Shown: piece after piece, positions 1 to 64,000 of the stretch
How the letters are laid out: every line of letters starts with the position of its first letter
Numbering within the stretch: position 1 is the first letter of the stretch
IMG/VR virus record: IMGVR_UViG_3300043436_003602
Location: 181 to 64,180 of that record
DNA: 64,000 nucleotides
From: a virus
Taxonomy: Duplodnaviria > Caudoviricetes
Reading direction: 5' to 3' (one strand)
Program-made: the position numbers and the translations under genes
Notes under the pieces: generated by a model
Databases searched by the model: none
What the model saw: the letters and a program-made list of their open reading frames with translations, nothing else
Told to the model about the DNA's origin: nothing

Positions 1-387
1 GACCGCCTCCGGGCTTCGGGGCACGGGGCAGGCCCATCCTATCGAGCTCGGGCTTGCCCTGTGGTCGCGGGCTTGGGTGGCGTCTTATATTGGCTAGTTG
101 GTTAAGCCGACGAGCCCGGCTACATAGCTCAACTGGGAGACGCACACCGCGAGCTGCATGACCACCAAGAATACCACGAAGATGCGAGTGACCCAAGACA
201 TGGGGCGATCATCGCAGACTTTATCTTCAGACTCAATCATTGCCATGGTCAAGCTTCCTTTGGTAGCAGATCACCAGCTGTGTGGCCGTGACCTTGACGG
301 ACGTAACTTCCTGGCCGCGTAGAGCACAGAGCATGACGGCCGAATGAGTTTGCATCGGATGGGTTAAGGGGATATAAAGCTGAGCCA

Positions 388-651
388 TCACTTCAGCACT
401 CCCAACGTCTCGAGTGTCGTCAACCAATGGGCATCATGCTCCTTCAGGGCATTGAGGTCGATCTCCACAGTCAGCGGCTGTTGGCCTAGGGCGCAGCGAA
501 TGGAGCCGACCTGGTGAAGGTCAACCTGAAGGAAAGTGTATTCCCACCCTGTGCGGCTGTTGCTACGCTCGAGGCGGTTGATCGGCGTCTGGTTAATCAG
601 GTTGTCGGCAACCTGCTTCGACAGGCCGGTGATGGTAAGCTTCATGTCCAT
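388..651 (-). CDS. hypothetical protein (early region)
   Basis: ORF with GAGGAG RBS, packed head-to-tail with neighbouring minus-strand ORFs. Confidence 0.6.
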   Translation of the reverse strand: MDMKLTITGLSKQVADNLINQTPINRLERSNSRTGWEYTFLQVDLHQVGSIRCALGQQPLTVEIDLNALKEHDAHWLTTLETLGVLK

Positions 652-652
652 A

Positions 653-850
653 TCAAATACTCCTCACAAACTCGAGGTCGAGCTGTTGGTCATTAACCTC
701 GATGACGTAGTTGTTGCAGCCGCCGCCGTCGAAGTTGTGGTTGTGATAAACCTCCACAGGGTGGCCTTTGCGGATGATGTAGATGGTCGTCGGGTCGCTC
801 ATCGATTGAGCAACCTCGAAGGCCTCGTCGGGATCAGACTTGGAAGTCAT
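653..850 (-). CDS. hypothetical protein
   Basis: 65-aa ORF in tightly packed minus-strand cluster. Confidence 0.55.
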   Translation of the reverse strand: MTSKSDPDEAFEVAQSMSDPTTIYIIRKGHPVEVYHNHNFDGGGCNNYVIEVNDQQLDLEFVRSI

Positions 851-1133
851 CGCGCTGTTCCTGTATTGAAGGGTGAGTTACAATGGTTGCCGGTGATCCC
901 GGTGCTCGTCGGCCTCCCCGGTAATGCCTCATACAGGCACCTTTGCGAATGACCTTAAAGCCACACTTCTTAAGATCATCGATAAGATCCTCCTTGTGGC
1001 TTACGTTTTTCCATCCTCGGTAACGAAGCTCTTGCTGTATGTTGGAGATAGGCGCGCCCTTTAGGGGCAATCCTGAAGCATCTACACAGTCCTGTCGAAG
1101 CAGGGGCATAACGGCATCTTGAAGGTTAGGCAT
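834..1133 (-). CDS. hypothetical protein
   Basis: Start moved to ATG 1133 (MPNLQD) behind AAAGGA RBS. Confidence 0.55.
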   Translation of the reverse strand: MPNLQDAVMPLLRQDCVDASGLPLKGAPISNIQQELRYRGWKNVSHKEDLIDDLKKCGFKVIRKGACMRHYRGGRRAPGSPATIVTHPSIQEQRDDFQV

Positions 1134-1146
1134 TGGACTGTTCCTT

Positions 1147-1335
1147 TCAGTTCGTGACGCGGTAGAGGAGTTTACGCTTACCGCTCGGGAGGATGCCCCA
1201 GACTGACTTAGTCCAGTAATTAAGTCCTCGAATGTAAGAAAAGGGAGCACGACGGCAAGGGTTGCGTCGGCCTTGACTGTCGGTACCCGTTGCTTCAAAA
1301 GCAACATAAGGTGTAAGGTCAATAGCTTCACTCAT
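1147..1335 (-). CDS. small hypothetical protein
   Basis: Directly downstream of promoter-hairpin cassette with GGAGA RBS. Confidence 0.7.
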   Translation of the reverse strand: MSEAIDLTPYVAFEATGTDSQGRRNPCRRAPFSYIRGLNYWTKSVWGILPSGKRKLLYRVTN

Positions 1336-1347
1336 ATCAATATCTCC

Positions 1348-1398
1348 ATCGCGTTATTGCGATAGAAGCACAATACGATGATGGTCATGCGGTGTCAA
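1348..1398 (-). promoter_or_regulatory. sigma70-type promoter + 5' hairpin cassette (copy 1)
   Basis: Minus strand TTGACA-17-TATTGT-6-ATCGCAATAACGCGAT-GGAGA. Confidence 0.85.
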
Positions 1399-1682
1399 TC
1401 GACTTGATCTCGACCGGAGGAATAAAAACCTTCAGCCCATGCCTTGTTCAGCCTATCCCGTAGACGAAGTGCCCGACTGTGGACATCGGTGGACATAACT
1501 ACCTCGCGATCACCGCCGCGAGGAGCCCGGTATACCACGCAGTACTTCGACTGATCCTGGCCGACGAGCTCTCCCGCTACAGCCTCATAGGGGCTATACA
1601 GCTTGATGGTCCGCTTGATCGCGGCAGCATGAGCCTCCCGTGCGGATATTCCGCCCATCGTAACTTGTCTAGCTCGGGGCAT
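1395..1682 (-). CDS. hypothetical protein
   Basis: AGGAG RBS; overlaps upstream ORF stop. Confidence 0.6.
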   Translation of the reverse strand: MPRARQVTMGGISAREAHAAAIKRTIKLYSPYEAVAGELVGQDQSKYCVVYRAPRGGDREVVMSTDVHSRALRLRDRLNKAWAEGFYSSGRDQVD

Positions 1683-1974
1683 TGGCTATACTCCTGTCTA
1701 TCGCTTCATTAGTCCAAGGGACACGTATAAAACCTTGGTAGCCGGACTCACAGGGCACCCGGTTTTGCCGGCCTTCCTGACGCACGAGAAACTCAAACCG
1801 TTCCTGCGTCATGGTAAAGCTGTAGCCTGAGGCTTGAAGCAATCGGGTGCCGTGCTCCGGATGACGTGCTTCCCACCAATCTGTCGGAAGACGGTCACCG
1901 CCGTAGTCGTAGAGGTCATGCCACAGTACCCAACCTTCGTAGGGCTCGATGTTTTCCACGGGTGTAGGTGTCAT
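1669..1974 (-). CDS. hypothetical protein
   Basis: TGATG coupling with upstream ORF. Confidence 0.65.
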   Translation of the reverse strand: MTPTPVENIEPYEGWVLWHDLYDYGGDRLPTDWWEARHPEHGTRLLQASGYSFTMTQERFEFLVRQEGRQNRVPCESGYQGFIRVPWTNEAIDRSIANAPS

Positions 1975-2219
1975 CAGCTTGCCCGCCTCAGGCGCATGAA
2001 CCGGCGTCGTCGGCCGTTGCGACCGTCGAAGTAGGCGTGGACAACAACCGCTTCGTTATTGCGCTCATCAAGCTCATAGCGAAAGTGCAGCCGGCCAACA
2101 CGTCGGTCAGATGCAAGTCGTTGAAGCTGTCGGCGCAGGTGATCGACAGAGCGAGTTCGATAGAACTCAGGCAGGTCGGTGCCGGCATAGTTGTGTGTTT
2201 CGATATTCCAATTGGTCAT
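1974..2219 (-). CDS. hypothetical protein
   Basis: Start ATG 2219 just downstream of hairpin cassette copy 2. Confidence 0.6.
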   Translation of the reverse strand: MTNWNIETHNYAGTDLPEFYRTRSVDHLRRQLQRLASDRRVGRLHFRYELDERNNEAVVVHAYFDGRNGRRRRFMRLRRAS

Positions 2220-2229
2220 GTGTAATCCA

Positions 2230-2280
2230 GTCGCGTTATTGCGATGCGCGATCATCGCGCAATCGGGGAGGGGGGGTCAA
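2230..2280 (-). promoter_or_regulatory. sigma70-type promoter + 5' hairpin cassette (copy 2)
   Basis: TTGACC-18-GATGAT-5-ATCGCAATAACGCGAC. Confidence 0.65.
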
Positions 2281-2290
2281 CCATCTTGTT

Positions 2291-2845
2291 CTATGATAAA
2301 CCGCATAGTTTTTTGATGGCGGGAACCTCGTTTGGCGGAAACGCCCAACCATAGTCGGGCTTCGGTCGTCCTGACGCTCGCAGCGCAGCGCGCGCAATCA
2401 TCGCAGGCGTTCCTGAGGCGGCGCACAGCTCGGTAATCGTCACATAACCGTCAGGACATTGCGCTCGAGGACTGCGCTCACGTCTCGGCGCCGGTTTCGC
2501 GAGTGTGTTGGTGCCATCATCGTCGACCACGACTTCGCGGACATGCACCTCGTCCCAGGTGCCATGCTTGAAGCGGAGGATCAGTCGGGCTACGTCCTCA
2601 CGAACTGGCTCGTTGGCGATGGGCGCAGCCATGATCTGCTGCCATTGCTCGCTTCGAAGTCGGATGGTGAGGTCGGTCTCGAGAATGATGTCATTCCCAT
2701 CGAGGCGATGCTCACAGCCAGCGAGGAACTTTGTCAGCCAGGCCCGAGCATGATCGGCTCGATCAAAGACGGGGACGTAAGTGCGGGAGTATTGATCGGA
2801 CTGCCGGTGGCCGGTCGCGTAGATCACAAATTGTTCGGTCTTCAT
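2291..2845 (-). CDS. protein with C-terminal HTH-like domain (paralogue family)
   Basis: C-terminal VTITELCAASGTPAMIARAALRASGRPKPDYGWAF; start after cassette copy 3. Confidence 0.7.
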   Translation of the reverse strand: MKTEQFVIYATGHRQSDQYSRTYVPVFDRADHARAWLTKFLAGCEHRLDGNDIILETDLTIRLRSEQWQQIMAAPIANEPVREDVARLILRFKHGTWDEVHVREVVVDDDGTNTLAKPAPRRERSPRAQCPDGYVTITELCAASGTPAMIARAALRASGRPKPDYGWAFPPNEVPAIKKLCGLS

Positions 2846-2855
2846 AATAATCTCC

Positions 2856-2906
2856 ATCGCGTTATTGCGATAAAAACACAATCGCATAGTGGTGTCTTGG
2901 CGTCAA
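2856..2906 (-). promoter_or_regulatory. sigma70-type promoter + 5' hairpin cassette (copy 3)
   Basis: TTGACG-17-GATTGT-6-ATCGCAATAACGCGAT-GGAGA. Confidence 0.8.
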
Positions 2907-2911
2907 CCGCC

Positions 2912-3751
2912 TTATCCTATCTCCTTCCGGAGCTGGACACGACCACCGGCTTCCCAGCCCGCAGCTGTTCCCGAGCCGCGCTTTGGGTTACGATGACGCG
3001 GTGCCTTGTAAGGCTTGGCTGCTGACTTCCCCCGCTGCTTTTCCTCATCCTCGAGGAACTTCACGCGCTCGGGCTCAGTCATCAGCGCAAGCTTCGCAGT
3101 GCGCTCTTCCTGACGCTTGGCCTCGGCCGCCCGCATAGGCGCCCAATACTTCTCGTCTTCATATTCCTTGATCTCGTTTCGGAGCGTCTCGAAGTAGCCA
3201 GCGACAACCAGCGCACTGCTACCTGTGGAGGCCTGTGCCGTTGCGTCTTGGGTCTCCATTTCCCGCATGAGTAACAGGGCACGTTGGTAAAGCCGCCCAC
3301 CACAGGCGTCCTTGAACGATCCGCGGAAGTTCGCTCGGTCGCGTTTCGACAGGCCGCGCGGCAGTGATTGCTTGTAAAGCTGCTCGACTTGCTGGACCAG
3401 CCAGATCATCGTCTGCTCGGCAAGCTCGACGTTTTCTTCCCGGCCGAGGAACCAGTAACCGTTCTTGCCGTAATTCGGCGCATAGCAGTCGACGCCGTAA
3501 AGCACGGCTGCTGCTTCGGAGCAGAAGCACTCGTAGACCTTCATGACCGTATACTTGCGCTTCTCGACGATCTTGGGCTTGGGTGCGCCGGCGGGTCGAA
3601 CTGCATCCAGCTCGATACCGATCTTGGTAGCAAGGCCCGCGGCCATACGCATTGCGTTAGTGGCTTCATCCTCAGAACAGCCATTTTCGACGGTCATGTT
3701 GAGAAGCTTGGCGATACGTGCCTTGGTCTTGGTAATCTCTTCGGGTGTCAT
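2912..3751 (-). CDS. DUF2786-like domain protein
   Basis: N-terminal RIAKLLNM...SEDEATNAMRMAAGL matches the DUF2786 pattern; C-terminal GxxAG motif. Confidence 0.7.
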   Translation of the reverse strand: MTPEEITKTKARIAKLLNMTVENGCSEDEATNAMRMAAGLATKIGIELDAVRPAGAPKPKIVEKRKYTVMKVYECFCSEAAAVLYGVDCYAPNYGKNGYWFLGREENVELAEQTMIWLVQQVEQLYKQSLPRGLSKRDRANFRGSFKDACGGRLYQRALLLMREMETQDATAQASTGSSALVVAGYFETLRNEIKEYEDEKYWAPMRAAEAKRQEERTAKLALMTEPERVKFLEDEEKQRGKSAAKPYKAPRHRNPKRGSGTAAGWEAGGRVQLRKEIG

Positions 3752-3764
3752 TGAAGTGTCTCCT

Positions 3765-3815
3765 ATCGCGTTATTGCGATTATTAGCTTATGACGCAGTG
3801 GACGACAAGCATCAA
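3765..3815 (-). promoter_or_regulatory. sigma70-type promoter + 5' hairpin cassette (copy 4)
   Basis: TTGATG-17-CATAAG-6-ATCGCAATAACGCGAT-AGGAGA. Confidence 0.75.
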
Positions 3816-3844
3816 CTTCCCATCGTCCACTATATTCTGCGCCT

Positions 3845-4570
3845 TCACTTCGAGCCGTTGAGTATCTTGCGAATGTCGCCGGCGGCGGACTTGGGGAACA
3901 CCCAGCGTTCACCCTTGACGGGCTTGGGGTAATTCGGCTTGTCCTCATACCGACGCATCTTGGCCCGAGCGACCTTCGGATCGATGTCGAGCTCCCGAGC
4001 AATGTCAGCGACGGTGGTCTGGTTCGGGTCCTTTTCGACCTGGGGCTTTTCAGCACGAGCCTTCTGCTTGGCTTCGATCTTTTCGATCTGACGCTTCGCC
4101 TTTTCGGGGTCCTTCTTAGGATCGACCTGGCCGGCGATCTTCTTGGGCTTGCGGAACTCGGCCTCATCCTTGATGAAGCGCTTGTCGGCTTCGGACAATT
4201 CGACCTTGTTCTTCTTCTTCGCAGCCTTGCGCTCGGCCTCGCGCTGGTCGCGGACGCGCTCGCGGCAATTCCTCGCCATCTGCTCACTGTCGAGCCCGCG
4301 AGCGAGGCCGACTTTTTCAATCTTCGTAGGCTTCACGGGCGTCTCGTCTTTCGGTTTTTCCTCGGGTTCGGGACGAGCAGCGGCGACTTCCGGATCATCG
4401 ATCTTCGGCGCAGCGGCGGGATCAGCGCCGGGGAGAACGTCGGTAAATCCTGCGGCCTCGAGCTGACCGATTGCTTCATCGAGTTTTGCCTGTGAGGTCT
4501 TCCAGGATTTCAGTTCAGGCTTGCCGGCGTTGACACGCAGGCGGTTGAGCTTTTCAAGTTTCATTAACAT
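3845..4570 (-). CDS. Lys-rich protein with C-terminal HTH-like domain (paralogue family)
   Basis: C-terminal TVADIARELDIDPKVARAKMRR...RWVFP. Confidence 0.75.
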   Translation of the reverse strand: MLMKLEKLNRLRVNAGKPELKSWKTSQAKLDEAIGQLEAAGFTDVLPGADPAAAPKIDDPEVAAARPEPEEKPKDETPVKPTKIEKVGLARGLDSEQMARNCRERVRDQREAERKAAKKKNKVELSEADKRFIKDEAEFRKPKKIAGQVDPKKDPEKAKRQIEKIEAKQKARAEKPQVEKDPNQTTVADIARELDIDPKVARAKMRRYEDKPNYPKPVKGERWVFPKSAAGDIRKILNGSK

Positions 4571-4591
4571 ACACCATTCCTCTAAGTGTGC

Positions 4592-4648
4592 ATCGCGTCG
4601 TCATTGACGTGATAGGCCTACTATATGATGGTGGTGCTTAGACGTCAA
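4592..4648 (-). promoter_or_regulatory. sigma70-type promoter + variant 5' hairpin (copy 5)
   Basis: TTGACG-17-TATAGT-6-ATCACGTC-AATGAC-GACGCGAT. Confidence 0.75.
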
Positions 4649-4677
4649 TCGTCTTTATGCTTGAATGGGATAAAAAA

Positions 4678-6582
4678 TTATTCGTCGTCATCCTTGTCCC
4701 GCTCGGCGATTTCCCAAGTCTGCGTCTTAGCTTCGCCTTTACCCTTGTTTTTCTTGGTGATGCTCATTCTCGAAGCCGCGCGGTCGATCATCTTCTTCGG
4801 GATGGACCTCTTCTCCGCCATCCTATACAGCTTCTCCACCTCTACAGCTGCACCGGTGATTGTGGCCTCGAGGAACTCCATAGCATCCTGGATACCGTCC
4901 CCTTGCTTACCCTTGGTTCGAGCTTCGGTCGAGGCGTCCATCACTTCCTGTGCGGTAAGACGATTAAAGCCTTCCCAGGTAAACTCAGAGCGATCCTTTT
5001 CTTTTGCTTCAATACGAAAAGCAAGGCCGCCGGGATCAGGAGCAAGGTTTCCCTTCACAATAGCCATAACGCGGGTTTCGCTGTCATCGGGATCGACGCC
5101 GACACACATGGTCACACGAGCAGAACCCGAGAATGCGACCGAGCCTTGGCCGCGATACATCGCCGAGCCCGAGCCCTTCGTAAGGTGTCGAATAAGAAGA
5201 ACCGCGCAGTTAAACTCGTCGGCAATCTGCTTGAAAATACCCATCGCCTGTGTGGCTTCTGATGCTTTGTGGGTGTCTGCCCGGCCTATATAGGTGTTCA
5301 GGGTATCGAACACAACCAGAGAAGGCTGGATAACTTCGAGGTGCTCACAGAGTTCCCCGATAGCATCCTCATCATCAATCGAGAATGCCTGCTCGATGGG
5401 ATAGTAGTTTCCGAGATTGTCGAAGCCGTTATACTTCAAGCGAACCTTGGTAACCGATGCGGCGTTGTTCTCGATGTCGCAATAGACAACCGGGCCGTGA
5501 GCCTTGGGCTTCCCCTTATGCACACAGGGAAGTCGCTTACCCTCGGCTATTGAGGCGGCGACGATCATAGCCATGTAGCTCTTCCCAAGTCCCGGGTCAC
5601 CCTCGAGGATTGACAGGGTTTTTCTTGCAAGGTAGGGGTACCAAAGCCAATCAATTTTTTCTTCCTTGATCTCCTGCATCGAGCGAATGGTAAAGATGCC
5701 CCTCTTCTCGTCTTGGGACTCCTCCTCATCCGATTTCCTGTGGAGCTTCTCTTTCCCCTTCGGCCTTTCCTTGAACTGGTTCTCCACAACCTTGCTGAGT
5801 TCGCGCCTCAGCTGCTCGTCCTCATTGCGTCGCCCGGCGAACTTGTTCCAGCCACTACGCTTGATAACAGCAAACGCCTCGTCGAGAGTCATGCCCGCTT
5901 CTACGCAAGCATTCTCAAGCTTCCACAGCATCTCACTGCGGTCTGACCTGCCGACAGTTTTCTTGGCCAGTAGTTCCCGGCGCACCCACCTGGGTAGCTC
6001 GGCCTCATACTTCTCGAACACTTCGGCCGCGGAAAGGTGTTCCCCCTCCTCTACTTCTTCAGGAGGCGGCAAGTACTTCTCGACCCGCTTCACCGTCCAG
6101 GTTTTGCCGTCCTTCCAAGCGACACGGACTTTAGGCTGTGCGGCGTATTTGTAGTTGCGGGTGCCGGGAACTCGCAAGAGCTGTGTAAGGTCCCATCCGC
6201 CATGGTCAGCATCTACCGCGTAGGTTAGGCGGCGATTAAGGTCTTCGGTCATCGGGCCATTCAAGACCCACAGTCCCACCCATCGACCGGGGGACGACTC
6301 GATAGCGATTGTTGGCCGAGGCTTCATGTCATTCGGGTTAGCGAAGTCAAGGTCGGCCCACAGCAAGTTGGGAATTACTGCTTCACTCTTCTGTCTTACG
6401 CGACGGTTAAACCCGTGCGGGCAGAAATAAATATCGTGGTCGTCATAGTCCTTGAGGAATTGACGGATATCTCCGAACTGGTCACGCGAGAAAAAGTGGT
6501 CTTTGAATTGCCCCCCAGCAGACTTAGTGGATAGGCAAAAGAATTTACCGGGCTGCTGCGCCCACAAATCCGTTATTAGCAT
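4678..6582 (-). CDS. primase-helicase (RepB/AEP-like primase + AAA_25/RecA-like helicase + C-terminal winged-helix-like domain)
   Basis: LWADLD, ESSPGR and LRVPGT primase motifs; Walker A GDPGLGKS; Walker B LVVFDT; RHLTK motif. Confidence 0.9.
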   Translation of the reverse strand: MLITDLWAQQPGKFFCLSTKSAGGQFKDHFFSRDQFGDIRQFLKDYDDHDIYFCPHGFNRRVRQKSEAVIPNLLWADLDFANPNDMKPRPTIAIESSPGRWVGLWVLNGPMTEDLNRRLTYAVDADHGGWDLTQLLRVPGTRNYKYAAQPKVRVAWKDGKTWTVKRVEKYLPPPEEVEEGEHLSAAEVFEKYEAELPRWVRRELLAKKTVGRSDRSEMLWKLENACVEAGMTLDEAFAVIKRSGWNKFAGRRNEDEQLRRELSKVVENQFKERPKGKEKLHRKSDEEESQDEKRGIFTIRSMQEIKEEKIDWLWYPYLARKTLSILEGDPGLGKSYMAMIVAASIAEGKRLPCVHKGKPKAHGPVVYCDIENNAASVTKVRLKYNGFDNLGNYYPIEQAFSIDDEDAIGELCEHLEVIQPSLVVFDTLNTYIGRADTHKASEATQAMGIFKQIADEFNCAVLLIRHLTKGSGSAMYRGQGSVAFSGSARVTMCVGVDPDDSETRVMAIVKGNLAPDPGGLAFRIEAKEKDRSEFTWEGFNRLTAQEVMDASTEARTKGKQGDGIQDAMEFLEATITGAAVEVEKLYRMAEKRSIPKKMIDRAASRMSITKKNKGKGEAKTQTWEIAERDKDDDE

Positions 6583-6764
6583 GGCGCCGCGTCTTTCTCA
6601 TTCTTGAGGCGCTCGACCTCTTCCTTCGGTATAAGCACGATATGCTTACCGGGCCTTTCTACAGTTACCGTTCCTCGGTGGATACGCTGATGCAAGGCCA
6701 TATACTCTATGCCTATATATTCAGCGGCCGCCTTCACGGTGTAATAGTCTTGAAGAGAACTCAC
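6576..6764 (-). CDS. excisionase/MerR-like HTH DNA-binding protein
   Basis: YTVKAAAEYIGI...IHRG...IPKEEVERL pattern; GTG start at 6764. Confidence 0.75.
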   Translation of the reverse strand: MSSLQDYYTVKAAAEYIGIEYMALHQRIHRGTVTVERPGKHIVLIPKEEVERLKNEKDAAPC

Positions 6765-6777: not shown

Positions 6778-6828
6778 TTGACAATGGCGTGAACTCCGGA
6801 ATATACTGTCAAAACATTTCACGGTCAA
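6778..6828. promoter_or_regulatory. overlapping divergent sigma70-type promoters
   Basis: Plus: TTGACA(6778)-18-TATACT; minus: TTGACC-17-TATATT; the two -10 boxes overlap. Confidence 0.7.
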
Positions 6829-10155: not shown

Positions 10156-10640
10156 GCAGAGAGCAAATGTTCATGGACATGGCTCGGGCGGCATCACGCC
10201 GCTCGACCTGTTTCCGTTTGAACGTCGGCGCAATCGTCATCCAGGGGAACAACCCCATAGCGGTTGGCTACAATGGTCATGAGCCCGGCGCGCCTCACTG
10301 CGCGGGAAACTCTTGCCCCGGTGTAGTGCCCGGTAAATGCGGAACCCGTCACGCCGAGGTTAATGCTTTGGAAAAGGCAAAGACCCTCCTGCTCGGCCGG
10401 CACCGCAAGCCCGTGGACCTGTACTGCACAGATAGCCCGTGTAGTGCTTGCGTCGACTATATCATCCGCGAACGGGATAAGGGGATGACCGGTATCCAGG
10501 TTGACCGCATCTTCTATGAAACACCCTATCGTGATACCAGTCACCTTAGTCGACTTCATGGAGTGATAGAAGTTTACTTGGTGACACCGGCAGGATATGT
10601 TGTCGATAACTTCTCTCGGCGCGTAGTGGTGACTCAATGA
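10143..10640 (+). CDS. dCMP deaminase family protein
   Basis: RSTC...VGA...GYNG, HAE and SPCxxC zinc motifs. Confidence 0.9.
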   Translation: MGRISREQMFMDMARAASRRSTCFRLNVGAIVIQGNNPIAVGYNGHEPGAPHCAGNSCPGVVPGKCGTRHAEVNALEKAKTLLLGRHRKPVDLYCTDSPCSACVDYIIRERDKGMTGIQVDRIFYETPYRDTSHLSRLHGVIEVYLVTPAGYVVDNFSRRVVVTQ

Positions 10641-13216
10641 GCAAACGACAAGTAATGATCATCGGGGAACAGCCCCAGATCAATCCTCGCGCCAAGTCTA
10701 TATTGATGGATGCTCTAAACCAGGCGGGCTTCGAAGAGCGAGACTTTCGGTGGATAAACGTCCTCGAAGAAGGCCCGCCTGAGGGTAAAAACGTCACCAA
10801 GACCATGATTAAGAATGCCAAGGAAAAGCTCCTGGCAAAGATCGATAAGCGAGACCCTCGGTATGTCGTCCTTCTTGGAAATACTCCGTGTCAGGCTGTC
10901 CTTGACCGAGCCGGTATCAGGAAGCTCAGGGGCAAGCCGCTCGAACACCAGAAAAGGGTCGTCCTCCCGATCCTCCATCCGAACCAGGCGCTCCATGATG
11001 ATAAGTGGATCGACATCATCGAGTCCGACCTCCAGCGACTGAGGGAGTGCGTCGACTTCGGTGGCATTCCTGAAGAGCGTGAGCTGGACTACCATATCGT
11101 GGACACCTGGGACAAGGTGAAAGCGATGCTCAGGGACATACGGGGCACTGTCGCTATCGACTTGGAGTGCACCCGCCTTTACCCCTTCACTACACAGCTT
11201 GACGAGCTTGTTGCTTCCGGACGGGCTTCACAGGATGCCATCAAAGAACACCGAGCCACCCACAGCGGTAACCAGCCCGCTGTCGTGGCTATGCAGTTCG
11301 GCTGTCGCAAGCGTCAATGGGTAGTCCCGATGGAAACCGCGGGCGTCTGGTCACGCCATGAGCTCGAGAAGATCGTAAAGCTCGCAACTCGAAAGCTCAA
11401 GGATTGCTTCACAGTATTCCACAATGGCAAGTTCGACTGCCTGTGGATGCTGGTTCGTTTCGGCGTCAAGTGGACAGTCGACTTTGATACGATGCTCGCC
11501 CACTACTTGGTGGATGAGAATGACTTTCATGGACTGAAATACCTCGCGCAGAAGTTTATCGGTGCACCCGACTGGGACGTTGAAGGTAAGGAAAAGACTG
11601 CTTGGTCACCAAAGAATGCCAAATATGCAGCCCATGACGTTTACTATACCCGGAAGCTGAGGCTCATCCTCAAGAAGATGCTCGAGGAGGACCATGATGT
11701 TAAGCGGGTCCATGACTGGATCATGATCCCGTGCATCAAGTTATTCATTGAAGCTGAGTTTACGGGTATCCAAATCGATCTCGACAAGATGGACGATGCG
11801 GAAAACTACCTGCGCGAGGAATTAGCCACCGCACTCGGTAACCTCGAGAAGTGGGGCAAGGAAGCGTCCAAGGTTGACAAGAAGACCGGCAAGATCAACT
11901 GGGGCAGTCCCGATCAACTGGGCAACCTCTTATTTGTAGACCTTAAGATCAAGTCTGTCGAAAAGACCAAAGCCGGCAAGGAGAGCGTCAGTGAGTCCGT
12001 TCTCAATCGTATCGACCATCCGATGGTCGGCGACCTTCTCAAGTTTAGGGCTGCACAGAAGCAACTCTCCGGTTTCATCGAGGGATGGAAACCTTACCTT
12101 GATCTTAACGGACGGCTGCATCCAGTATTCAAATTGCACGGTACCGTTACCGGTCGGCTTTCTTGTGAGCATCCCAATCTACAGCAGGTTCCCCGAGACC
12201 CCCGTATTAGAACACTCATTACTGCTCCCGATGGTTGGGAGCTTATCGAAATGGATCTCTCTCAGATCGAGCTCAGGATCGCTGCCGAGTTGGCGGATGA
12301 GCACAATCTACTGGGAGTCTTCAATTCAGGAGGTGACCCTCACTGGCAGACTGCTATTCGAGAAATCGAGCGAGGAGCAGGATACAAGAGGGAAATACGA
12401 CAAACCATAAAATTCCACCACGAGCTCGAGGGTAAAGAATATGTGAAGATGAATTACAGCGAAGCCATCGAGTATATCCTTGAGTTAGGGGGTAAGGCTT
12501 GCGAAGGCTTGATGGACATGTGGGAACAAACATACCCCGGCGTCGAGTTCATGAACTGGAAGGAGACACGTAAGAAAGCAAAGGCGATCAACTTCGGGTA
12601 TCTCTACGGCATGTGGTGGAAGAAGTTTAAGATATATGCCCGAGATAACTACGGTGTCAACGTCACAGATGATGAGGCACAGGCATCCCGTGAAGCCTTC
12701 TTCGAGCTGTATCCTGGGTTCCCAAAGTGGCACGAGCGTCAGCGTAGGTTCGCACAGGTCAACGGTTACGTTCGCTCACTCAGCGGGCGCAAACGTCGAC
12801 TACCGGCTGCTGCGACCGGTCGTGATACGCCTGAGAGGCGCGAAGCACAGCGCCAGGCGATCAACTCGCCGGTGCAGTCGTTCGCCAACGAGCTGAACCT
12901 GATGGCGGCGATCCAGATGCGTAAAGAATTCCACAAGTCGTGGTTCCGTATTGTCGGCACTGTGCATGACGCCATCCTTATGTGGGTTCGCAAAGATAAG
13001 GTGGAGCACGTATTTAACCGGGGGCTCGAGATCATGAGTCATCCCGAGTTGCTCGATGACTTCGAGATCGAGATGAGTGTTCCGATTGAAGCAGATGGTA
13101 AGGTTGGCCCTTGGGGCGCAGGAAAGGACTTAGGAAAATGGTTAAAAGCTCAAAACGACAACTCATCATCGACCCCAAGCACGGACAAGGGTTTGCGGCG
13201 AAAAAGAGTGGTGTAG
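10637..13216 (+). CDS. polA: family A DNA polymerase with N-terminal UDG-like domain and 3'-5' exonuclease
   Basis: IDLE/HNGKFD/YAAHD exonuclease motifs; TGRLS, DLSQIELR, KAINFG, VHD polymerase motifs; N-terminal GEQP...LLG...LHP. Confidence 0.95.
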   Translation: MSKRQVMIIGEQPQINPRAKSILMDALNQAGFEERDFRWINVLEEGPPEGKNVTKTMIKNAKEKLLAKIDKRDPRYVVLLGNTPCQAVLDRAGIRKLRGKPLEHQKRVVLPILHPNQALHDDKWIDIIESDLQRLRECVDFGGIPEERELDYHIVDTWDKVKAMLRDIRGTVAIDLECTRLYPFTTQLDELVASGRASQDAIKEHRATHSGNQPAVVAMQFGCRKRQWVVPMETAGVWSRHELEKIVKLATRKLKDCFTVFHNGKFDCLWMLVRFGVKWTVDFDTMLAHYLVDENDFHGLKYLAQKFIGAPDWDVEGKEKTAWSPKNAKYAAHDVYYTRKLRLILKKMLEEDHDVKRVHDWIMIPCIKLFIEAEFTGIQIDLDKMDDAENYLREELATALGNLEKWGKEASKVDKKTGKINWGSPDQLGNLLFVDLKIKSVEKTKAGKESVSESVLNRIDHPMVGDLLKFRAAQKQLSGFIEGWKPYLDLNGRLHPVFKLHGTVTGRLSCEHPNLQQVPRDPRIRTLITAPDGWELIEMDLSQIELRIAAELADEHNLLGVFNSGGDPHWQTAIREIERGAGYKREIRQTIKFHHELEGKEYVKMNYSEAIEYILELGGKACEGLMDMWEQTYPGVEFMNWKETRKKAKAINFGYLYGMWWKKFKIYARDNYGVNVTDDEAQASREAFFELYPGFPKWHERQRRFAQVNGYVRSLSGRKRRLPAAATGRDTPERREAQRQAINSPVQSFANELNLMAAIQMRKEFHKSWFRIVGTVHDAILMWVRKDKVEHVFNRGLEIMSHPELLDDFEIEMSVPIEADGKVGPWGAGKDLGKWLKAQNDNSSSTPSTDKGLRRKRVV

Positions 13217-14235
13217 CGCCGGCCCATGACCACAGCGCCGTCCTTACGGGTGACGGTCAGATTAACGTCAGCCAGTCAAAGGTGAAGACCTGGCGGCAGT
13301 GCCGTCGGCAATACCATAACAAGTTCGTCTTGATGCTTCAGAAAAAGAAGATCAAGCGACCCTTTATGTTTGGTCGGATTGTTCACGAGATTATCGAGGC
13401 GGACCTTGAAGGCCATGACTGGGAAGAGGTCCTCAATAAGGTTGAGCTCGACAACAAAAAGCTGTTCCGAAAAGAGATCGAGATGTATGGCAACATCATC
13501 GCGGACATTCGGGACATCATGACCGACTACTTCATCTTTTGGGATGGCACATTTAAGCCGATGAAGCATGATGGTCGCCGGAGCGAGTTCGAGTTTCGCA
13601 TTGAACTGGACGACGCTCTCTGGTTTACCGGCAAGATCGACGCGGTCGGTAAAGCGAAAGCGATGAAGTGGCTGGTTGAGCACAAGACGTTTAATCGGAT
13701 GCCGAGCGAGGATGATCGATGGAGGTCAGTCCAAGCGGCTGTATACTTCAAGGCTCTCGAGGAGATGGGCTTCCCGAGCATCGACGGGGTTATGTGGGAC
13801 TACGTGTCCAGCAAGCCATTGAACGTCCCGGGTGAGCTTACAAAAGCAGGCAAGGTTTCCCAGGCTCGGATCGACTCTACCCCCTCAAGGATCAAGCGGT
13901 GGCTCAAGGAGGAGGGGCTGAAGCGAAGGGATAACCAGAAGCTGCTGACCGATGCCGAGGCTAATCTCCGCAATCGGTTTATCCGGGTCTATAGTCCGGT
14001 CAAGCGCCGGATTGTAGATAACATCTGGGACGACTTTGTGGACACCGCGCGAGAAATCCAAGAGTTCCACGGTCGCAAGAAGGATCAGAACATCGGCCGG
14101 CACTGCACCTGGTGCGACTATCAGCCTCTGTGCAAGGCCGAGGCTACCGGAGCAGATGTCGACTGGATCATTAACCGAGAGTACCAGACCGAAAACACCT
14201 CACATAAGCGGGATGAGGACCGAGCGGAGGATTAA
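13138..14235 (+). CDS. PD-(D/E)XK RecB/Cas4-like exonuclease
   Basis: SQS...C, G...H, GKID...EHK, QxxxY, CxxCDY...C. Confidence 0.85.
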   Translation: MVKSSKRQLIIDPKHGQGFAAKKSGVAPAHDHSAVLTGDGQINVSQSKVKTWRQCRRQYHNKFVLMLQKKKIKRPFMFGRIVHEIIEADLEGHDWEEVLNKVELDNKKLFRKEIEMYGNIIADIRDIMTDYFIFWDGTFKPMKHDGRRSEFEFRIELDDALWFTGKIDAVGKAKAMKWLVEHKTFNRMPSEDDRWRSVQAAVYFKALEEMGFPSIDGVMWDYVSSKPLNVPGELTKAGKVSQARIDSTPSRIKRWLKEEGLKRRDNQKLLTDAEANLRNRFIRVYSPVKRRIVDNIWDDFVDTAREIQEFHGRKKDQNIGRHCTWCDYQPLCKAEATGADVDWIINREYQTENTSHKRDEDRAED

Positions 14236-14242
14236 ATGACGG

Positions 14243-14271
14243 TTGCAGGGCACTCGCTTCCGTGATATACA
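14243..14271 (+). promoter_or_regulatory. sigma70-type promoter
   Basis: TTGCAG-17-TATACA upstream of ATPase gene. Confidence 0.5.
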
Positions 14272-14299
14272 AGCAAACCTGAGCAAAGGATCACTAACC

Positions 14300-15130
14300 A
14301 TGGCGACAGAAGTTCGTAAAAAAGACAGAGGAGGGAGGGCACCCGGCGCTAAGCCCATCTCCGAAGTCAAGCACCACGGCAGCACCGCCCTCTACGGCAG
14401 GAGCTCCACAGGTAAGACCACCCTGGCGTCTACCTACCCCAAGCCGATCCTCTACTTCAACATTCGTGACAACGGGACTGACAGCATCAGTGACGTTGAA
14501 GACATCGACGTGGTGGAGATCGAGACCTCGGATGAGTTGAAGGAGCAAATCCTCTGGCTCCACAAACAGGCCGAGCGCGGGAAGCTGATCTATAAGACCG
14601 TTGTGCTCGACACCATGACACAGCTTCAGGGCATCCTTGTCGAAGAGATGGGGGCCAAGAAAAAGCTCAAAGGCAGCAAACGTGCTGGTGACTTCGGCAC
14701 TCTTCACAAGCAGGACTGGGGGGCTATCGCCGGCGACCTCAAAGCGGTCATCATGGACATTCGTAACCTGCCCGTCGAGTCCGTGTTTATTGCTCAGGAG
14801 CGTATCTTCAACGCAGGTGATGAGGAAGACGACGGGATTGATCAGCTGGCTCCCGAGGTTGGTACTCGGTTGATGCCGTCGGTTAATTCCGACCTGTGCG
14901 CCTCAGTTTCAGTTATCGGGAACACCTTTATCAAGGTCAAGGTGACCAAGGAAAAGGACCCGAAGACCAAGAAAACGGTCAAGCGTATCGAAAAGATTTA
15001 CTGTTTGAGGTTGGGCCCCAACGAGGTCTACACCACAAAAATCCGGAAGCCCAAAGGGATCGAGGCCCCGGATTATATCGTCGATCCCACCTTCCGGAAG
15101 ATCAAGAAAATTATGAAAGGAATTGAATGA
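14300..15130 (+). CDS. AAA_24 / Sak4-like ATPase (recombination)
   Basis: YGRSSTGKTT, VVLDT, FIAQE; located between exonuclease and SSB. Confidence 0.85.
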   Translation: MATEVRKKDRGGRAPGAKPISEVKHHGSTALYGRSSTGKTTLASTYPKPILYFNIRDNGTDSISDVEDIDVVEIETSDELKEQILWLHKQAERGKLIYKTVVLDTMTQLQGILVEEMGAKKKLKGSKRAGDFGTLHKQDWGAIAGDLKAVIMDIRNLPVESVFIAQERIFNAGDEEDDGIDQLAPEVGTRLMPSVNSDLCASVSVIGNTFIKVKVTKEKDPKTKKTVKRIEKIYCLRLGPNEVYTTKIRKPKGIEAPDYIVDPTFRKIKKIMKGIE

Positions 15131-15996
15131 TGGCGCGTAGCCGAAAAAAGACCTCCTCGGTGAAGGTCAACTTCAAGGGAGTCGAGAGTCGCAAGACTCC
15201 GCCCGAGGGCGATTATGTGATGAAGGTCCTCGAGGCCAAGTCCGACAGGGGCCCCTCGGGTGACATGATCGCCTTCGTCTGCGAAATCACTAAAGGCGAA
15301 TACAAGGGTGTCAAGGGCTACCTGTATTGCCCGCTGACCGAGAACAGTCTGTGGAAGCTTCACGCATTCCTGACCGCGCTCGGCGAAGAGGTTCCCGAGG
15401 ACGAGATGGAAATCGACCTGCCCGAGCTGATCGACAAGGAGTTCGTGGGTGTCATGACCCATGAAATCTACAACGGCAAGAAGCGCGCCAAGTTGACCGA
15501 CTTCGACAGCCTCGACAACTACGACGGCGAAGATACCGACGAGGACGAGGATGAAGATGAGGACGACGCGCCCAAGAAGGGCAAGAAGTCCAAGTCGAAG
15601 GGCAAGCCGGCGAAGGGCAAGAAGTCGAAGTCCGATGATGACGACGAGGATGAAGATGAGGACGAAGACGATGAGGACGAAAAGTCGTCCAAAAAGTCCA
15701 AGAAGTCCAAGTCGAAGAAGTCTTCCAAGAAAGACGATGACGATGACGAGGACGACGAGGATGATGAGCCCAAGTCCAAGAAGGGCAAGGGCAAACCCGC
15801 GAAGAAGTCCAAGAAGAAGACCTGGTCGACCGATGATGTCGAGGACATGGACGAGGACGAACTCGAGGAGCTGCTCGAGGAAGCCGGCCTGGACGACGAA
15901 GTCGACCTCGACGACTACAAGAACCTGAAGAAGAAGGTCGCCGCGGTGCTCGAAGCACTCGAGGAGGCCGACCTTCTCGAAGACGACGACGACTGA
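15127..15996 (+). CDS. DUF669-like ssDNA-binding protein with long acidic/basic tail
   Basis: PEGDY...LWKL...HEIYNGK OB-fold pattern followed by alternating D/E and K/S blocks. Confidence 0.75.
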   Translation: MMARSRKKTSSVKVNFKGVESRKTPPEGDYVMKVLEAKSDRGPSGDMIAFVCEITKGEYKGVKGYLYCPLTENSLWKLHAFLTALGEEVPEDEMEIDLPELIDKEFVGVMTHEIYNGKKRAKLTDFDSLDNYDGEDTDEDEDEDEDDAPKKGKKSKSKGKPAKGKKSKSDDDDEDEDEDEDDEDEKSSKKSKKSKSKKSSKKDDDDDEDDEDDEPKSKKGKGKPAKKSKKKTWSTDDVEDMDEDELEELLEEAGLDDEVDLDDYKNLKKKVAAVLEALEEADLLEDDDD

Positions 15997-16022
15997 TCCC
16001 GTCGGGTCGCCCTGGACGGGAG

Positions 16023-16056
16023 GGGCGGCTCGAGCAATCGGGTCGCCCTTTCTTTT
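16023..16056 (+). terminator. Rho-independent terminator
   Basis: GGGCGGCTCGA-GCAA-TCGGGTCGCCC followed by TTTCTTTT. Confidence 0.75.
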
Positions 16057-16071
16057 AGCTGGAGGAATACT

Positions 16072-16275
16072 ATGGCTTGGATGAAAATCTCAGAACCCCT
16101 GATGGTTAAACTGCTGGAATTACCTGAGGGCACGTCTCTCGGTTGTGATCCTTCCGGCAATATGGATATTGAGGTATTTCACCCCGATATACCGAAGGAC
16201 GCAAAGAACGTACTGCCCACCTGGGTCAAGGAGGGAGATACCATGAAGTTCCTGGGATTTAAGGTTATCGACTAA
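16072..16275 (+). CDS. hypothetical protein
   Basis: GGAGG RBS; TAATG coupling to next gene. Confidence 0.7.
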   Translation: MAWMKISEPLMVKLLELPEGTSLGCDPSGNMDIEVFHPDIPKDAKNVLPTWVKEGDTMKFLGFKVID

Positions 16276-18331: not shown

Positions 18332-18346
18332 TGAAGGGACATTTCA

Positions 18347-18721: not shown

Positions 18722-18748
18722 TCGTCAACACGCCATCACTATTCCTCC

Positions 18749-18969: not shown

Positions 18970-19000
18970 ACCCTCATCGCGGGATTGAAGGGGCATAGCC

Positions 19001-58580: not shown

Positions 58581-58907
58581 TTCAGCGATTGCGTCCTCCG
58601 TAACCTTTGCTGTTGCTGTTGCCTTACGGGGCGCGCGGGGAGCGGGCGCAATGGCGGCAGCGTATGAAGGGTCAAACTGGGCGCGGACCTTGTCATATTG
58701 CTTCGCATCGAACGCCCAGGCGGCATTGCGTTCATGGACGTCTTTCATATTAGCGCGTAACCAAACGCGGACTTTTTTGTCGGAGTTGGCGGATGCAAGC
58801 GAAGAGGTCGGATTGGCGTCAACAATATCACGAATGACAAGTTTGAGCGAAACAGTGGCACCGCGAGCGGTGGGACGGTTGGCGGCAATCGTGGTAGACT
58901 TTGTCAT
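58578..58907 (-). CDS. small protein with divergent HTH-like domain (paralogue family)
   Basis: DKKVRVWLRANM...AAWAF. Confidence 0.6.
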   Translation of the reverse strand: MTKSTTIAANRPTARGATVSLKLVIRDIVDANPTSSLASANSDKKVRVWLRANMKDVHERNAAWAFDAKQYDKVRAQFDPSYAAAIAPAPRAPRKATATAKVTEDAIAE

Positions 58908-58926
58908 ATTTAATTCCATTCAATAA

Positions 58927-58986
58927 ATCGAGCGCGTTATTGCGTTTCGATGTCATCAATCTACGACTATCAATCGATGCTGTCAA
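58927..58986 (-). promoter_or_regulatory. sigma70-type promoter + extended 5' hairpin (copy 6)
   Basis: TTGACA-17-TAGATT-6-ATCGAAACGC-AATAAC-GCGCTCGAT. Confidence 0.8.
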
Positions 58987-60325: not shown

Positions 60326-60504
60326 AGTCTGACAATACTTACCTCGGTCTCGCCTATAATAAATTGACGCAAAGCTCGAGCGGCGGAATAAGCCTCACGA
60401 AAGGTCAAGCGGCTAGTGATCTCGACTGTCACGGCCTCGATTGTGCGACAAGGCACACTTTGACCTTCAACGGGGTTTAAGCTGAGAACAACAATACAAA
60501 TCAT
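60322..60504 (-). CDS. hypothetical protein
   Basis: AAGGAG RBS directly after cassette copy 7. Confidence 0.65.
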   Translation of the reverse strand: MICIVVLSLNPVEGQSVPCRTIEAVTVEITSRLTFREAYSAARALRQFIIGETEVSIVRL

Positions 60505-60516
60505 GGCAAACTCCTT

Positions 60517-60567
60517 ATCGCGTTATTGCGATATAATGACACTAAGGTAACGGGAAATTAAAATCAA
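60517..60567 (-). promoter_or_regulatory. sigma70-type promoter + 5' hairpin cassette (copy 7)
   Basis: TTGATT-17-TAGTGT-6-ATCGCAATAACGCGAT-AAGGAG. Confidence 0.75.
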
Positions 60568-62120: not shown

Positions 62121-62357
62121 TCATGCATTCACGTTTGCATCGGCACGGGCGGCCATTATGACGCGATTGAATTCTGCCCAGGCGGTTGTTATAGTGCGGT
62201 TATACTCAATCATCGCGGGTGTCGTGACGCAGCCGCGGTCGAGCTTTGCCGCTGCGGCCGTTATGATGCGCTCATACTCAGCCCATGCGGTTGCAATGAC
62301 GCGGTCGAGTTTAGCCTGTGCAACTGATTGTTTGCTGTCTGTGAGGGTCATTGTCAT
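62121..62357 (-). CDS. Ala-rich helical-repeat protein
   Basis: AGGAG RBS; TAWAE(Y/F) repeats; shares 36 identical bp with 48916-48951. Confidence 0.6.
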   Translation of the reverse strand: MTMTLTDSKQSVAQAKLDRVIATAWAEYERIITAAAAKLDRGCVTTPAMIEYNRTITTAWAEFNRVIMAARADANVNA

Positions 62358-62365
62358 ACTCCTGG

Positions 62366-62467
62366 TATCAATATCTCCATCGCGTTATTGCGATAAAAAC
62401 ACAATACGATGATGGATCAGCGGAGTCAACACCCGCAATCTCGTTTATCCTCGCATGTCGATTTTGG
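62366..62467 (-). repeat. 102-bp direct repeat containing promoter-hairpin cassette (copy 8)
   Basis: Identical to 63899-64000; TTGACT-17-TATTGT-6-hairpin-GGAGA. Confidence 0.95.
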
Positions 62468-63356: not shown

Positions 63357-63899
63357 TCACAGATGAAGATTTATGAACTCGCGCCCGAGATCGGTCAGCG
63401 TATCCTCCTCGGCGTTGAGCAGGTTCATGCGGACACAGAAGTCGAGCATGGTGTCATAGTCGTCTTCGTCGTCATTGTGGTTCCGCAGGAACTCGCCGGT
63501 GATATACTCCTCCTCACCGCCGTTGTCGATGCAATGCAGCATCTTGGCCAGCGCATCGAGGTCGCCGGGAAAGGCGTAGCCGATGGTTTCAGCAAGAGGC
63601 ATACACTCGAGATCACCATGGGCACGATGCCTGAGCGACTCGTTGGAAAGTTCATCCATCATCGAAGAGACAATGGTTTCACGATCCTGCTCGGTAAACA
63701 TCGGGTGTTGCCAGGCGGGATCAGGAGCGTCGCCCGGGCCGCGTTCGAGGTTATCCTGGACGAAGTCGATCAGTGTATCGGTTTCGATCAGGTCAGGACC
63801 GCAGTCATCGATCCAGAGGCAGACGAGGTCGAGCATGGTCGAGTCGTTGGTATTGGTCGCTTCCTGGTGAAGGCGAAGTTGTTGGCGTATGCTAGTCAT
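63357..63899 (-). CDS. acidic hypothetical protein
   Basis: Directly downstream of cassette copy 9. Confidence 0.7.
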   Translation of the reverse strand: MTSIRQQLRLHQEATNTNDSTMLDLVCLWIDDCGPDLIETDTLIDFVQDNLERGPGDAPDPAWQHPMFTEQDRETIVSSMMDELSNESLRHRAHGDLECMPLAETIGYAFPGDLDALAKMLHCIDNGGEEEYITGEFLRNHNDDEDDYDTMLDFCVRMNLLNAEEDTLTDLGREFINLHL

Positions 63900-64000
63900 A
63901 TCAATATCTCCATCGCGTTATTGCGATAAAAACACAATACGATGATGGATCAGCGGAGTCAACACCCGCAATCTCGTTTATCCTCGCATGTCGATTTTGG
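63899..64000 (-). repeat. 102-bp direct repeat containing promoter-hairpin cassette (copy 9), truncated by window end
   Basis: Identical to 62366-62467. Confidence 0.95.

Follow-up and report, generated by a model that had tools for sequence, protein, structure and literature searches.

In a 64,000-nucleotide stretch of DNA from an uncultured lake-water phage, called the window below, nine early promoters are predicted to begin their messages with the same small hairpin, and this element, which is structurally selected and widely distributed among phages, is real. It probably serves, on the early messages of phages, as a control or protection signal that has not been described before. The window comprises positions 181-64180 of a 64,180-base IMG/VR virus record (IMGVR_UViG_3300043436_003602) that was rated complete, and the promoter-hairpin units, or cassettes, lie in it in two groups, at 1.3-4.6 kb (5 cassettes) and 58.9-63.9 kb (4 cassettes), which would form a single early region of about 10 kb spanning the record ends if the genome is circular or permuted. 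By Pfam search, the window proteins include terminase, portal and gene transfer agent (GTA)-like tail proteins (Phage-tail_3, BR0599, phiJL001 Gp84 and DUF2460) as well as a family A DNA polymerase, an AAA_25 primase-helicase and products of nucleotide-metabolism genes, and no RNA polymerase was found among them. The hairpin-driven genes are small ORFans, and the early proteins are without Pfam or PHROG function. The nearest cultured phages are Brevundimonas phages, with a DNA polymerase 60% identical to that of the window and weak similarity at the DNA level.

Position of the hairpin in nine early promoters

The 16-mer ATCGCAATAACGCGAT was found on the minus strand of the window in exact form in cassettes 1, 3, 4, 7, 8 and 9 (coordinates in Table 1) and in imperfect form at 2230 (1 mismatch) and 58931 (2 mismatches), giving 8 matches against 0.01 expected from 100 shuffles, none of which reached 8. 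A longer helix encloses the 58931 site as its core; in this helix the pairs ATCGA/TCGAT lie outside an internal loop and CGC/GCG lie inside it below the loop AATAAC. In the ninth element, in cassette 5, the inner stem has 4 bp (CGTC/GACG) and the loop is AATGAC, and a 1x1 internal loop and the outer pairs ATC/GAT follow. All nine hairpins are on the same strand and are restricted to the one early region. A first-pass annotation of the window had described nine minus-strand promoter-hairpin cassettes, in one orientation and in the early region only, and these were all recovered; the range that it gave for them, 1348-4648, contains five cassettes, and the other four lie in the second group at 58.9-63.9 kb.

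Upstream of each window hairpin, a -35 box of the form TTGAnn, a spacer of 17-19 nt and a -10 box were recognised. The gap between the -10 box and the hairpin, as measured by script at the nine window sites, was 6 nt in 7/9, with a shorter value at 2230 (5 nt) and another at 3765 (4 nt), where an alternative -10 box assigned by eye (CATAAG) restores a gap of 6 nt. The annotation had given a TTGA-type promoter, a gap of 5-6 nt and a spacer of 17 or 18 nt. A Shine-Dalgarno-like word abuts or shortly follows every window hairpin, and the start codon lies 10-27 nt past the hairpin.

The same register was obtained when 75 elements were aligned on hairpin base 1, with TTG at -35 to -33, TAT..T at -12 to -7 and GGAGA at +17 to +21. 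Since the -10 box occupies -12 to -7 relative to hairpin base 1, this base falls at the canonical +1, in agreement with the earlier prediction from promoter geometry, and transcription would start there; base 1 is A in 54/75 and G in 16/75 elements. A Shine-Dalgarno-like word was found for 72/75 elements and begins 0 or 1 nt past the hairpin in 49/72 and 2-13 nt past it in 23/72.

Eleven extended hairpins, each with an outer helix of 4-7 bp, a small internal loop and the conserved top, were compared with the plain form for their distance from the promoter. The outer helix starts 4-6 nt past the end of the -10 box in 10/11, whereas the conserved core lies 8-17 nt from it (6 nt in the plain form). 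Because the distance to the outer-helix base is the constant one, the position of the promoter is tied to the 5' end of the helix and not to the loop, as is predicted for a signal flush with the 5' end of an RNA and not for a DNA site read by a protein. In most members of the clade described below, the extended form heads the gene for a conserved protein of about 100 aa.

In folding predictions, the hairpin was the minimum-energy structure of 8/9 window leaders (canonical form, -5.6 kcal/mol), with the ribosome site left unpaired, and cassette 7 was the sole window leader whose minimum-energy fold favours other pairing. Two sigma-70-like promoters in the replication module, one on each strand, are without the hairpin, and the hairpin thus marks one class of promoters or messages and not all. 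These two promoters are divergent and stand back to back, and the minus-strand one heads the genes for a 62-aa excisionase-like helix-turn-helix protein and then for the primase-helicase (Table 1).

Spread of the element and covariation of its stem

The exact 16-mer was present in 48 IMG/VR loci (49 matches). When the flanks of the 49 matches were read, about 20 were found in promoter-hairpin-ribosome site context, and the remainder fell into a few coding families. Scans of whole records with mismatches allowed gave 9, 2, 1, 6, 6, 6 and 7 sites in G001-G007, respectively, all but two of them on one strand of their own record. G001, G002 and G004-G007 are syntenic with the window, with core proteins 50-80% identical and early proteins 30-55% identical, and a profile search with the primase-helicase added 18 loci, among them several new members of this clade. 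The early gene content varies among the relatives and the cassettes persist. In the more distant relatives L134-L136, no shared cassette was found in the 15-22 kb examined.

Beyond the clade, the exact or a loop-variant 16-mer was found 5-7 nt past a -10-like box and upstream of a ribosome site and start codon in records whose proteins showed no detected similarity to those of the clade (G009, G010 at 37% G+C, G017, G019 and G020), in G013/G014, whose detected similarity to the clade is confined to a 41% identical terminase, in the distant relatives G011/G012 and G016, and in the provirus-classed record G018. The G+C content of the records outside the clade's similarity range (G009, G010, G013/G014 and G017-G020) extends from 37 to 62%. 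These non-clade lineages carry one or two copies of the hairpin per record, and in several of them a CA-rich spacer separates it from the ribosome site. A 41-letter stretch of the provirus G018 is also present, as part of a prophage, in a Mesorhizobium metagenome-assembled genome (MAG), in which a search with up to 2 mismatches gave 55 matches against 9 in the reversed control; among 20 matches inspected, the sole copy in promoter context was that of the prophage. The single hairpin promoter of this prophage (G018, L285 4100-5104; L290) lies directly downstream of, and codirectional with, a gene for a CI-like repressor composed of a helix-turn-helix and a peptidase-like part, and it heads an open reading frame (ORF) of 76 aa.

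With loop positions 3-4 left free, a scan with ATCGCAANNACGCGAT gave at least 122 matches. Among the matches listed, 23/122 had a well-placed -10 box, a ribosome site and a start codon, and a pyrimidine occupied loop position 3 in 23/23 of these in-context sites against 50/82 of the sites with neither feature. In bacterial genomes, the 20-mer of hairpin plus GGAG matched only the dnaA coding sequence of one MAG, and in the cultured phages (50,697 records) a 51-nt promoter-hairpin query gave just 2 weak and unrelated matches. No such hairpin was found in bases 12000-30000 of Brevundimonas phage Strzyga, the closest cultured relative. This part of the Strzyga genome (L119, ON529867.1) has at least 8 early promoters with TATGATGTCTTCATCA, a short palindrome over the -10 box, followed by a AAGGACAC ribosome site. 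Rfam release 15 gave 0 matches at the gathering score in the whole window and, at E up to 5 in positions 1-5000, just 3 matches at chance level (E 2.3-3.7), all on the other strand. In the text of the literature, neither the 16-mer, in DNA or RNA letters, nor a 12-nt string of the RNA core was matched, the 10-nt core occurred in 32 papers, of which the ten listed were unrelated, and a literature search on early-promoter hairpins found nothing.

For the analysis of the stem, a first set of elements was collected with the core GCAANNACGC as the anchor (97 sites in 19 records). Strict gene-start context applied to 66 sites, of which 48 form all three outer pairs, 11 form two and 7 form a single one; among the other 31 sites, 10 form all three, and of these 5 proved to be real elements misfiled by the ORF filter and 3 a coding repeat. 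A covariation set defined by the core and a downstream gene comprised 75 sequences (46 distinct), in which 85.2% of the cells were paired, against 72.5 +/- 1.6% after shuffling and 12.6-42.6% with slid partners. Cells changed on both sides numbered 39 in this set against 15.1 +/- 4.0 in the shuffles, a count matched by 0/500.

Because the GCAANNACGC anchor fixes the two inner pairs, the analysis was repeated with an anchor blind to the stem, consisting of TTG near -35 and a -10-like hexamer at -12 to -7, each with a shift of 1-2 nt allowed, and the loop AAYNAC. This anchor yielded 52 sites in 483,546 bases, 38 with 5/5 pairs, 5 with 4/5 and 9 with 2 or fewer; the last nine are presumably chance matches, and all 52 sites were retained in the test. 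Every one of the five pairs was altered on both sides in this set (for example, the closing C-G to U-A or A-U, and G-C to U-A). The paired cells amounted to 75.4% against 54.3 +/- 2.5% after shuffling and 18.9-38.3% in the slid controls, and the double-change cells to 38 against 13.1 +/- 3.2, again a count matched by 0/500 shuffles. The slid controls retain the relatedness of the sequences and yet score far lower. Within single genomes, the arms differ from hairpin to hairpin yet remain complementary (ATC/GAT, ATT/AAT, TGT/ACA and GAT/ATC), and the promoters orthologous to that of cassette 5 in L120, L121 and L125 have the form GCGTC-AATSAC-GACGC. The loop consensus is A-A-pyrimidine-N-A-C, in which A6, A7, A10 and C11 are invariant by choice of the anchor.

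The annotation had noted that the variants within the window differ in the stem but retain its pairing and the loop, which the covariation in related phages bears out, and it had preferred an RNA element to a plain DNA operator, a preference strengthened by the covariation and by the tracking of the outer-helix base. The hairpin very likely acts as a folded single strand, most probably RNA. As a DNA operator, the inverted repeat from +1 to +16 would be recognised as a duplex by a dimeric repressor of the early promoters. Its 5-bp arms, with centres 11 bp apart over the start site, do occupy the classic operator position, the phage encodes several helix-turn-helix-like proteins (including one from a conserved opposite-strand gene in the early region, 192 aa in Table 1), and the Strzyga early promoters share a palindrome over the -10 box that is not fully transcribable. 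This explanation is nevertheless highly improbable, since a reader of fixed bases does not predict arms that vary within one genome but stay complementary, the sole invariant letters are in the asymmetric spacer between the arms, the orientation to transcription is constant, and in the extended variants the spacing of the conserved core to the -10 box changes by half a helical turn (5-6 bp).

Candidate function and readers of the hairpin

In the mechanism that we favour, a host RNA polymerase of the sigma-70 type would start each early message at base 1 of a helix that has 5 bp in the plain form or, counting both sides of an internal loop, about 9-10 bp in the extended form. The helix carries the invariant hexaloop A-A-pyrimidine-N-A-C, and in most cases the ribosome site comes directly after it. 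With no unpaired letters in front of the helix, the triphosphate end would be sealed against 5'-end-dependent decay (RppH, the 5' sensor of RNase E, and RNase J). The fixed loop on a variable stem would serve as the docking site for one trans-acting factor, the same for all early messages that carry the hairpin tag, and the docked factor might stabilise or privilege these messages or silence them at a set time. The dual role was proposed to cover the fixed loop and the exact +1 position together, and we give even chances to the hairpin working as a 5' seal with a loop that a trans-acting factor reads.

Stem-loops at the 5' end stabilise certain bacterial and phage messages, for example in the ompA and papA leaders. 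The element shares with this class a short helix predicted at the first transcribed base, the lack of a single-stranded 5' end and a short leader before the ribosome site; it differs in that structure alone suffices there, whereas here four loop letters are fixed in many phage lineages and the hairpin is repeated at 9 promoters of one genome, all of one promoter class. Work of the Belasco laboratory is said to have established that RppH needs unpaired 5' nucleotides and that stem-loops at the 5' end stabilise mRNA. PMC3997798 gives the requirement of RppH as at least 2 unpaired 5' nucleotides and describes 5'-terminal stem-loops as stabilising mRNA.

As the tag is present, singly, in lineages with no detected proteins in common with the clade, its reader is more likely to be a conserved host component than a phage protein of the clade. 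We tentatively entertain, as a minority view among the possibilities, that a conserved host component of Alphaproteobacteria, for example in the RNA decay, transcription or translation machinery, reads the A-A-Y-N-A-C hairpin as a portable 5' tag, and that phage lineages with no detected proteins in common, the Mesorhizobium prophage included, acquired it independently or by transfer for privileged stability or expression of their first messages. Read in this way, the hairpin would amount to an address label that the phage brings for the machinery of its host, a functional analogue of the cap.

The hairpin-driven genes were also inspected for a phage-encoded partner. A domain of about 50 aa (alignment A3; Table 1) occurs in four or five proteins per clade genome, several of them hairpin-driven, and also in a hairpin-driven gene of G016 and of G011/G012. 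Searches with it gave weak winged-helix hints (E 0.098 or worse) and no Pfam family, and among the matches listed none of 120 homologues had a Pfam domain. The A3 domain is missing from 5/5 unrelated hairpin-bearing records and is present in Strzyga and three distant relatives, in which no hairpin was found in the parts examined; its presence follows the phage family and not the hairpin, and it was rejected as the partner. The conserved small protein with a basic tail (94-125 aa) is always encoded by the last hairpin-driven gene and has the extended hairpin in its own leader. Its 109-aa form in the window was modelled as a helical bundle (predicted local distance difference test score, pLDDT, 71.3) for which Foldseek gave no match in PDB at E <=0.001, and its close homologues are 4 unnamed proteins. 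No function was assigned to the early proteins by comparison with Pfam and PHROGs, and a locus search with single proteins found nothing.

Timed translational shut-off, for which T4 RegA and the coat-protein operators of RNA phages are the models, would require a middle protein of the phage to bind the loop, block the adjoining ribosome site and turn all early messages off together. The Shine-Dalgarno-like word at 0-1 nt from the hairpin in 49/72 elements, the tagging of all early ORFan units and not of the replication promoters, and an invariant loop on a free stem, typical of protein operators, are what such an operator would show. We regard it as unlikely, because the ribosome site is 2-13 nt away in 23/72 elements and behind a CA-rich spacer in several other lineages, because the constant distance is to the -10 box and not to the start codon, because phages with no detected protein similarity to the clade carry the tag once or twice, and because the distribution of the A3 domain, as a candidate for the protein, does not match that of the tag. 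The coat-protein operators of RNA phages and the operator of T4 gene 43 are hairpins beside a ribosome site and have in common with the element a sequence-specific loop, an abutting Shine-Dalgarno sequence and a stem free to covary; they are single autoregulatory sites on one gene, whereas the tag here is on many unrelated genes and phages. The loop may resemble that of the T4 gene 43 operator, whose presumed loop string was not found in the text of the papers listed.

A further explanation is antitermination of the boxB type, in which a small phage protein on the nascent hairpin would ride RNA polymerase through terminators into early or middle genes. The N proteins of lambda and its relatives bind nut/boxB hairpins, the loop of which is a GNRA-like pentaloop. 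The likeness extends to a 15-16 nt hairpin, a covarying 5-bp stem, a small conserved loop that is presumably read by a protein, and a position in nascent early RNA just past host-type promoters, and the small basic-tailed protein, always last among the hairpin-driven genes, would be of suitable type. We nevertheless consider antitermination improbable: each of the nine sites per genome has its own promoter, the early region holds 6 terminator-like sites against 6.3 and 6.5 expected and is thus without enrichment, and the hairpin stands at the extreme 5' end, with no RNA predicted 5' of it for a boxA-like element and with a ribosome site following. Moreover, the loop is a hexaloop and not a GNRA-like pentaloop, GGAGA is the only conserved word downstream, no N-like protein was recognisable, and the model of the small protein, a helical bundle, was without match in PDB at E <=0.001.

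Explanations that dispense with a partner were considered next to these. The hairpin, formed in the nascent RNA or in the non-template strand of a scrunched bubble, might tune promoter escape or pausing, or the cassette might mainly be a recombination linker for the shuffling of early genes, as in the PeSL cassettes discussed below. In favour of these explanations are the fixed register to the -10 box, an exact 102-nt duplicate, the 61-77% likeness of three cassettes over 64 nt, and the persistence of cassettes among relatives whose early genes vary. A linker, however, needs sequence identity and not compensatory pairing, and the cassettes diverge freely outside the hairpin, while an effect on escape or pausing leaves unexplained four invariant loop letters over lineages of 37-62% G+C; we give this pair of explanations little credence.

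The annotation had likened the cassettes to the promoter-stem-loop (PeSL) cassettes of T4-type phages, and this analogy is not supported in that form, because the stem-loop of PeSL, as described in PMC2839356, is a GC-rich terminator that overlaps the -35 and -10 boxes or separates them, rather than a hairpin transcribed at the 5' end. Common to both are a repeated strong sigma-70-like early promoter with a stem-loop and a ribosome site before small ORFans, a plastic early region and some near-identical copies that could recombine. The hairpin described here is short (5 bp), lies past the -10 box, is predicted to be transcribed, has a conserved loop, lacks a U-run and precedes GGAG; the terminator-like sites called include none of the nine hairpins, and this phage is not T4-like, with siphovirus tail genes of the GTA-like type.

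Several points weigh against the reading of the hairpin as an RNA seal with a read loop. The folding energies of the leaders are no better than those of shuffled sequences (z-scores, +0.12 to -2.06). The shuffle statistics of the covariation tests overstate independence, owing to shared ancestry and exact copies, and are to be taken as counts and not as probabilities; the elements were also chosen by rules of our own, with the core or the loop fixed by construction. Of 375 cells, 6 are G-U and 7 are A-C, equally low numbers, so that a hairpin in the sense RNA and one in either strand of the DNA are indistinguishable by this measure. No RNA run was found to contain the sequence of window positions 1-4800, for which the strong matches were all DNA contigs from lake-water metagenomes, and no binding partner was found among the hairpin-driven genes, of which A3 is the sole recurrent domain. 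The palindrome of the Strzyga promoters, not being fully transcribable, makes a DNA-level element possible in the wider group. Finally, neither half of the proposal accounts for both features, as a pure stabiliser needs no invariant loop and a pure protein tag needs no exact +1 position.

If the tag works as proposed, it would be a compact 16-nt signal, involving a sequence-specific reader, that separates the early messages of the phage from host messages and from later phage messages. The protection and timing of early transcripts have mostly been studied in T4, T7 and lambda, and the hairpin would offer an easily mutated handle on both for the first transcripts of Alphaproteobacteria phages. 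Since many uncultured lineages and a Mesorhizobium prophage carry the tag, its reader would be relevant to a wide set of phages, and the hairpin could act as a portable leader in expression constructs for these hosts.

Cassette coordinates and neighbouring genes

Table 1. Promoter-hairpin cassettes and other features of the window (positions are those of the window; boxes and codons are given with their letters where read)
Feature	Strand	Extent	-35 box	-10 box	Hairpin	Ribosome site	Start codon	Remarks
Cassette 1	-	1333..1398	TTGACA 1393-1398	TATTGT 1370-1375	1348-1363	GGAG 1344-1347	ATG 1335	
Cassette 2	-	2217..2280	TTGACC 2275-2280	GATGAT 2251-2256	2230-2245		ATG 2219	final pair A-C
Cassette 3	-	2843..2906	TTGACG 2901-2906	GATTGT 2878-2883	2856-2871	GGAG 2852-2855	ATG 2845	184-aa protein
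Cassette 4	-	3749..3815	TTGATG 3810-3815	TAAGCT or CATAAG	3765-3780	AGGA 3761-3764	ATG 3751	DUF2786/DUF7168 protein
Cassette 5 (variant)	-	4568..4648	TTGACG 4643-4648	TATAGT 4620-4625	4592-4613		near 4570-4574	241-aa protein
Cassette 6 (extended)	-	58905..58986	TTGACA 58981-58986	TAGATT 58958-58963	58927-58951 (helix)		ATG 58907	109-aa conserved protein
Cassette 7	-	60502..60567	TTGATT 60562-60567	TAGTGT 60539-60544	60517-60532	AAGG(AG) 60513-60516	ATG 60504	
Cassette 8	-	62355..62429	TTGACT 62424-62429	TATTGT 62401-62406	62379-62394		ATG 62357	
Cassette 9	-	63897..63962	TTGACT 63957-63962	TATTGT 63934-63939	63912-63927	GGAG 63908-63911	ATG 63899	
A3 domain	-	3848-4033						pattern ..T..diA..l...pk.aRa.LR....W.F....i..l
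A3 domain	-	2294-2479						same pattern
A3 domain	-	58635-58814						same pattern
A3 domain	+	44643-44810						same pattern
A3 domain	+	18347-18721						same pattern
Replication-module promoter	-	6828-6800						no hairpin; pair spans 6778-6828
Replication-module promoter	+	6778-6807						no hairpin
Excisionase-like gene	-	6576-6764						62 aa, helix-turn-helix
Family A DNA polymerase gene	+	10637-13216						
GC-rich stem-loop, copy 1	-	58095-58150						about 11 bp
GC-rich stem-loop, copy 2	-	58525-58575						about 11 bp
AT-rich stretch		59100-59500						non-coding
Helix-turn-helix-like gene	+	59495-60073						192 aa
Coding repeats, two adjacent early ORFs		61836-62332						33-nt period
Coding repeats, single gene		48849-49772						33-nt period, at 48925-48990

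The promoter of cassette 2 is followed by three small ORFs. In cassettes 8 and 9, the segments 62366-62467 and 63899-64000 are exact duplicates of 102 nt that include the promoter, hairpin and ribosome site, and the two are therefore not independent instances of the element. In the cassette 8 copy, the original start codon is gone, and a new ribosome site and start codon are found 15 nt further on. Other cassettes are 61-77% alike over 60-64 nt, with free divergence of the sequence outside the hairpin.

A GC-rich stem-loop of about 11 bp (GTGGAGCGCAG ... CTGCGCTCCAC) occurs twice, in both cases behind CGTAACC and without a U-run, directly downstream of the two genes located past the last hairpin promoter, and the copies may be 3' stabilisers or factor-dependent terminators that close the early region. 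Between the hairpin promoters of the second group lies an AT-rich non-coding stretch with three CATGGGAAAA repeats and two TATTTCCGGTTAT repeats, beside which a gene on the plus strand encodes a 192-aa protein with two helix-turn-helix-like parts, conserved in six compared genomes (26-47% identity). The stretch and this gene may together constitute a regulatory region or an origin within the early region. Periodic coding repeats of 33 nt (11 aa, e.g. AKLDRV..TAWAEY) are present in two adjacent early ORFs and in one gene distant from them, and on the opposite strand these repeats give chance mimics of the hairpin core.

The family A DNA polymerase has an N-terminal domain of the uracil-DNA-glycosylase superfamily, and genes for a dCMP deaminase, a thymidylate-synthase-like protein and a ThyX-like protein are found elsewhere in the window; together, this domain and the nucleotide genes may hint at an unusual nucleotide metabolism or at DNA modification.

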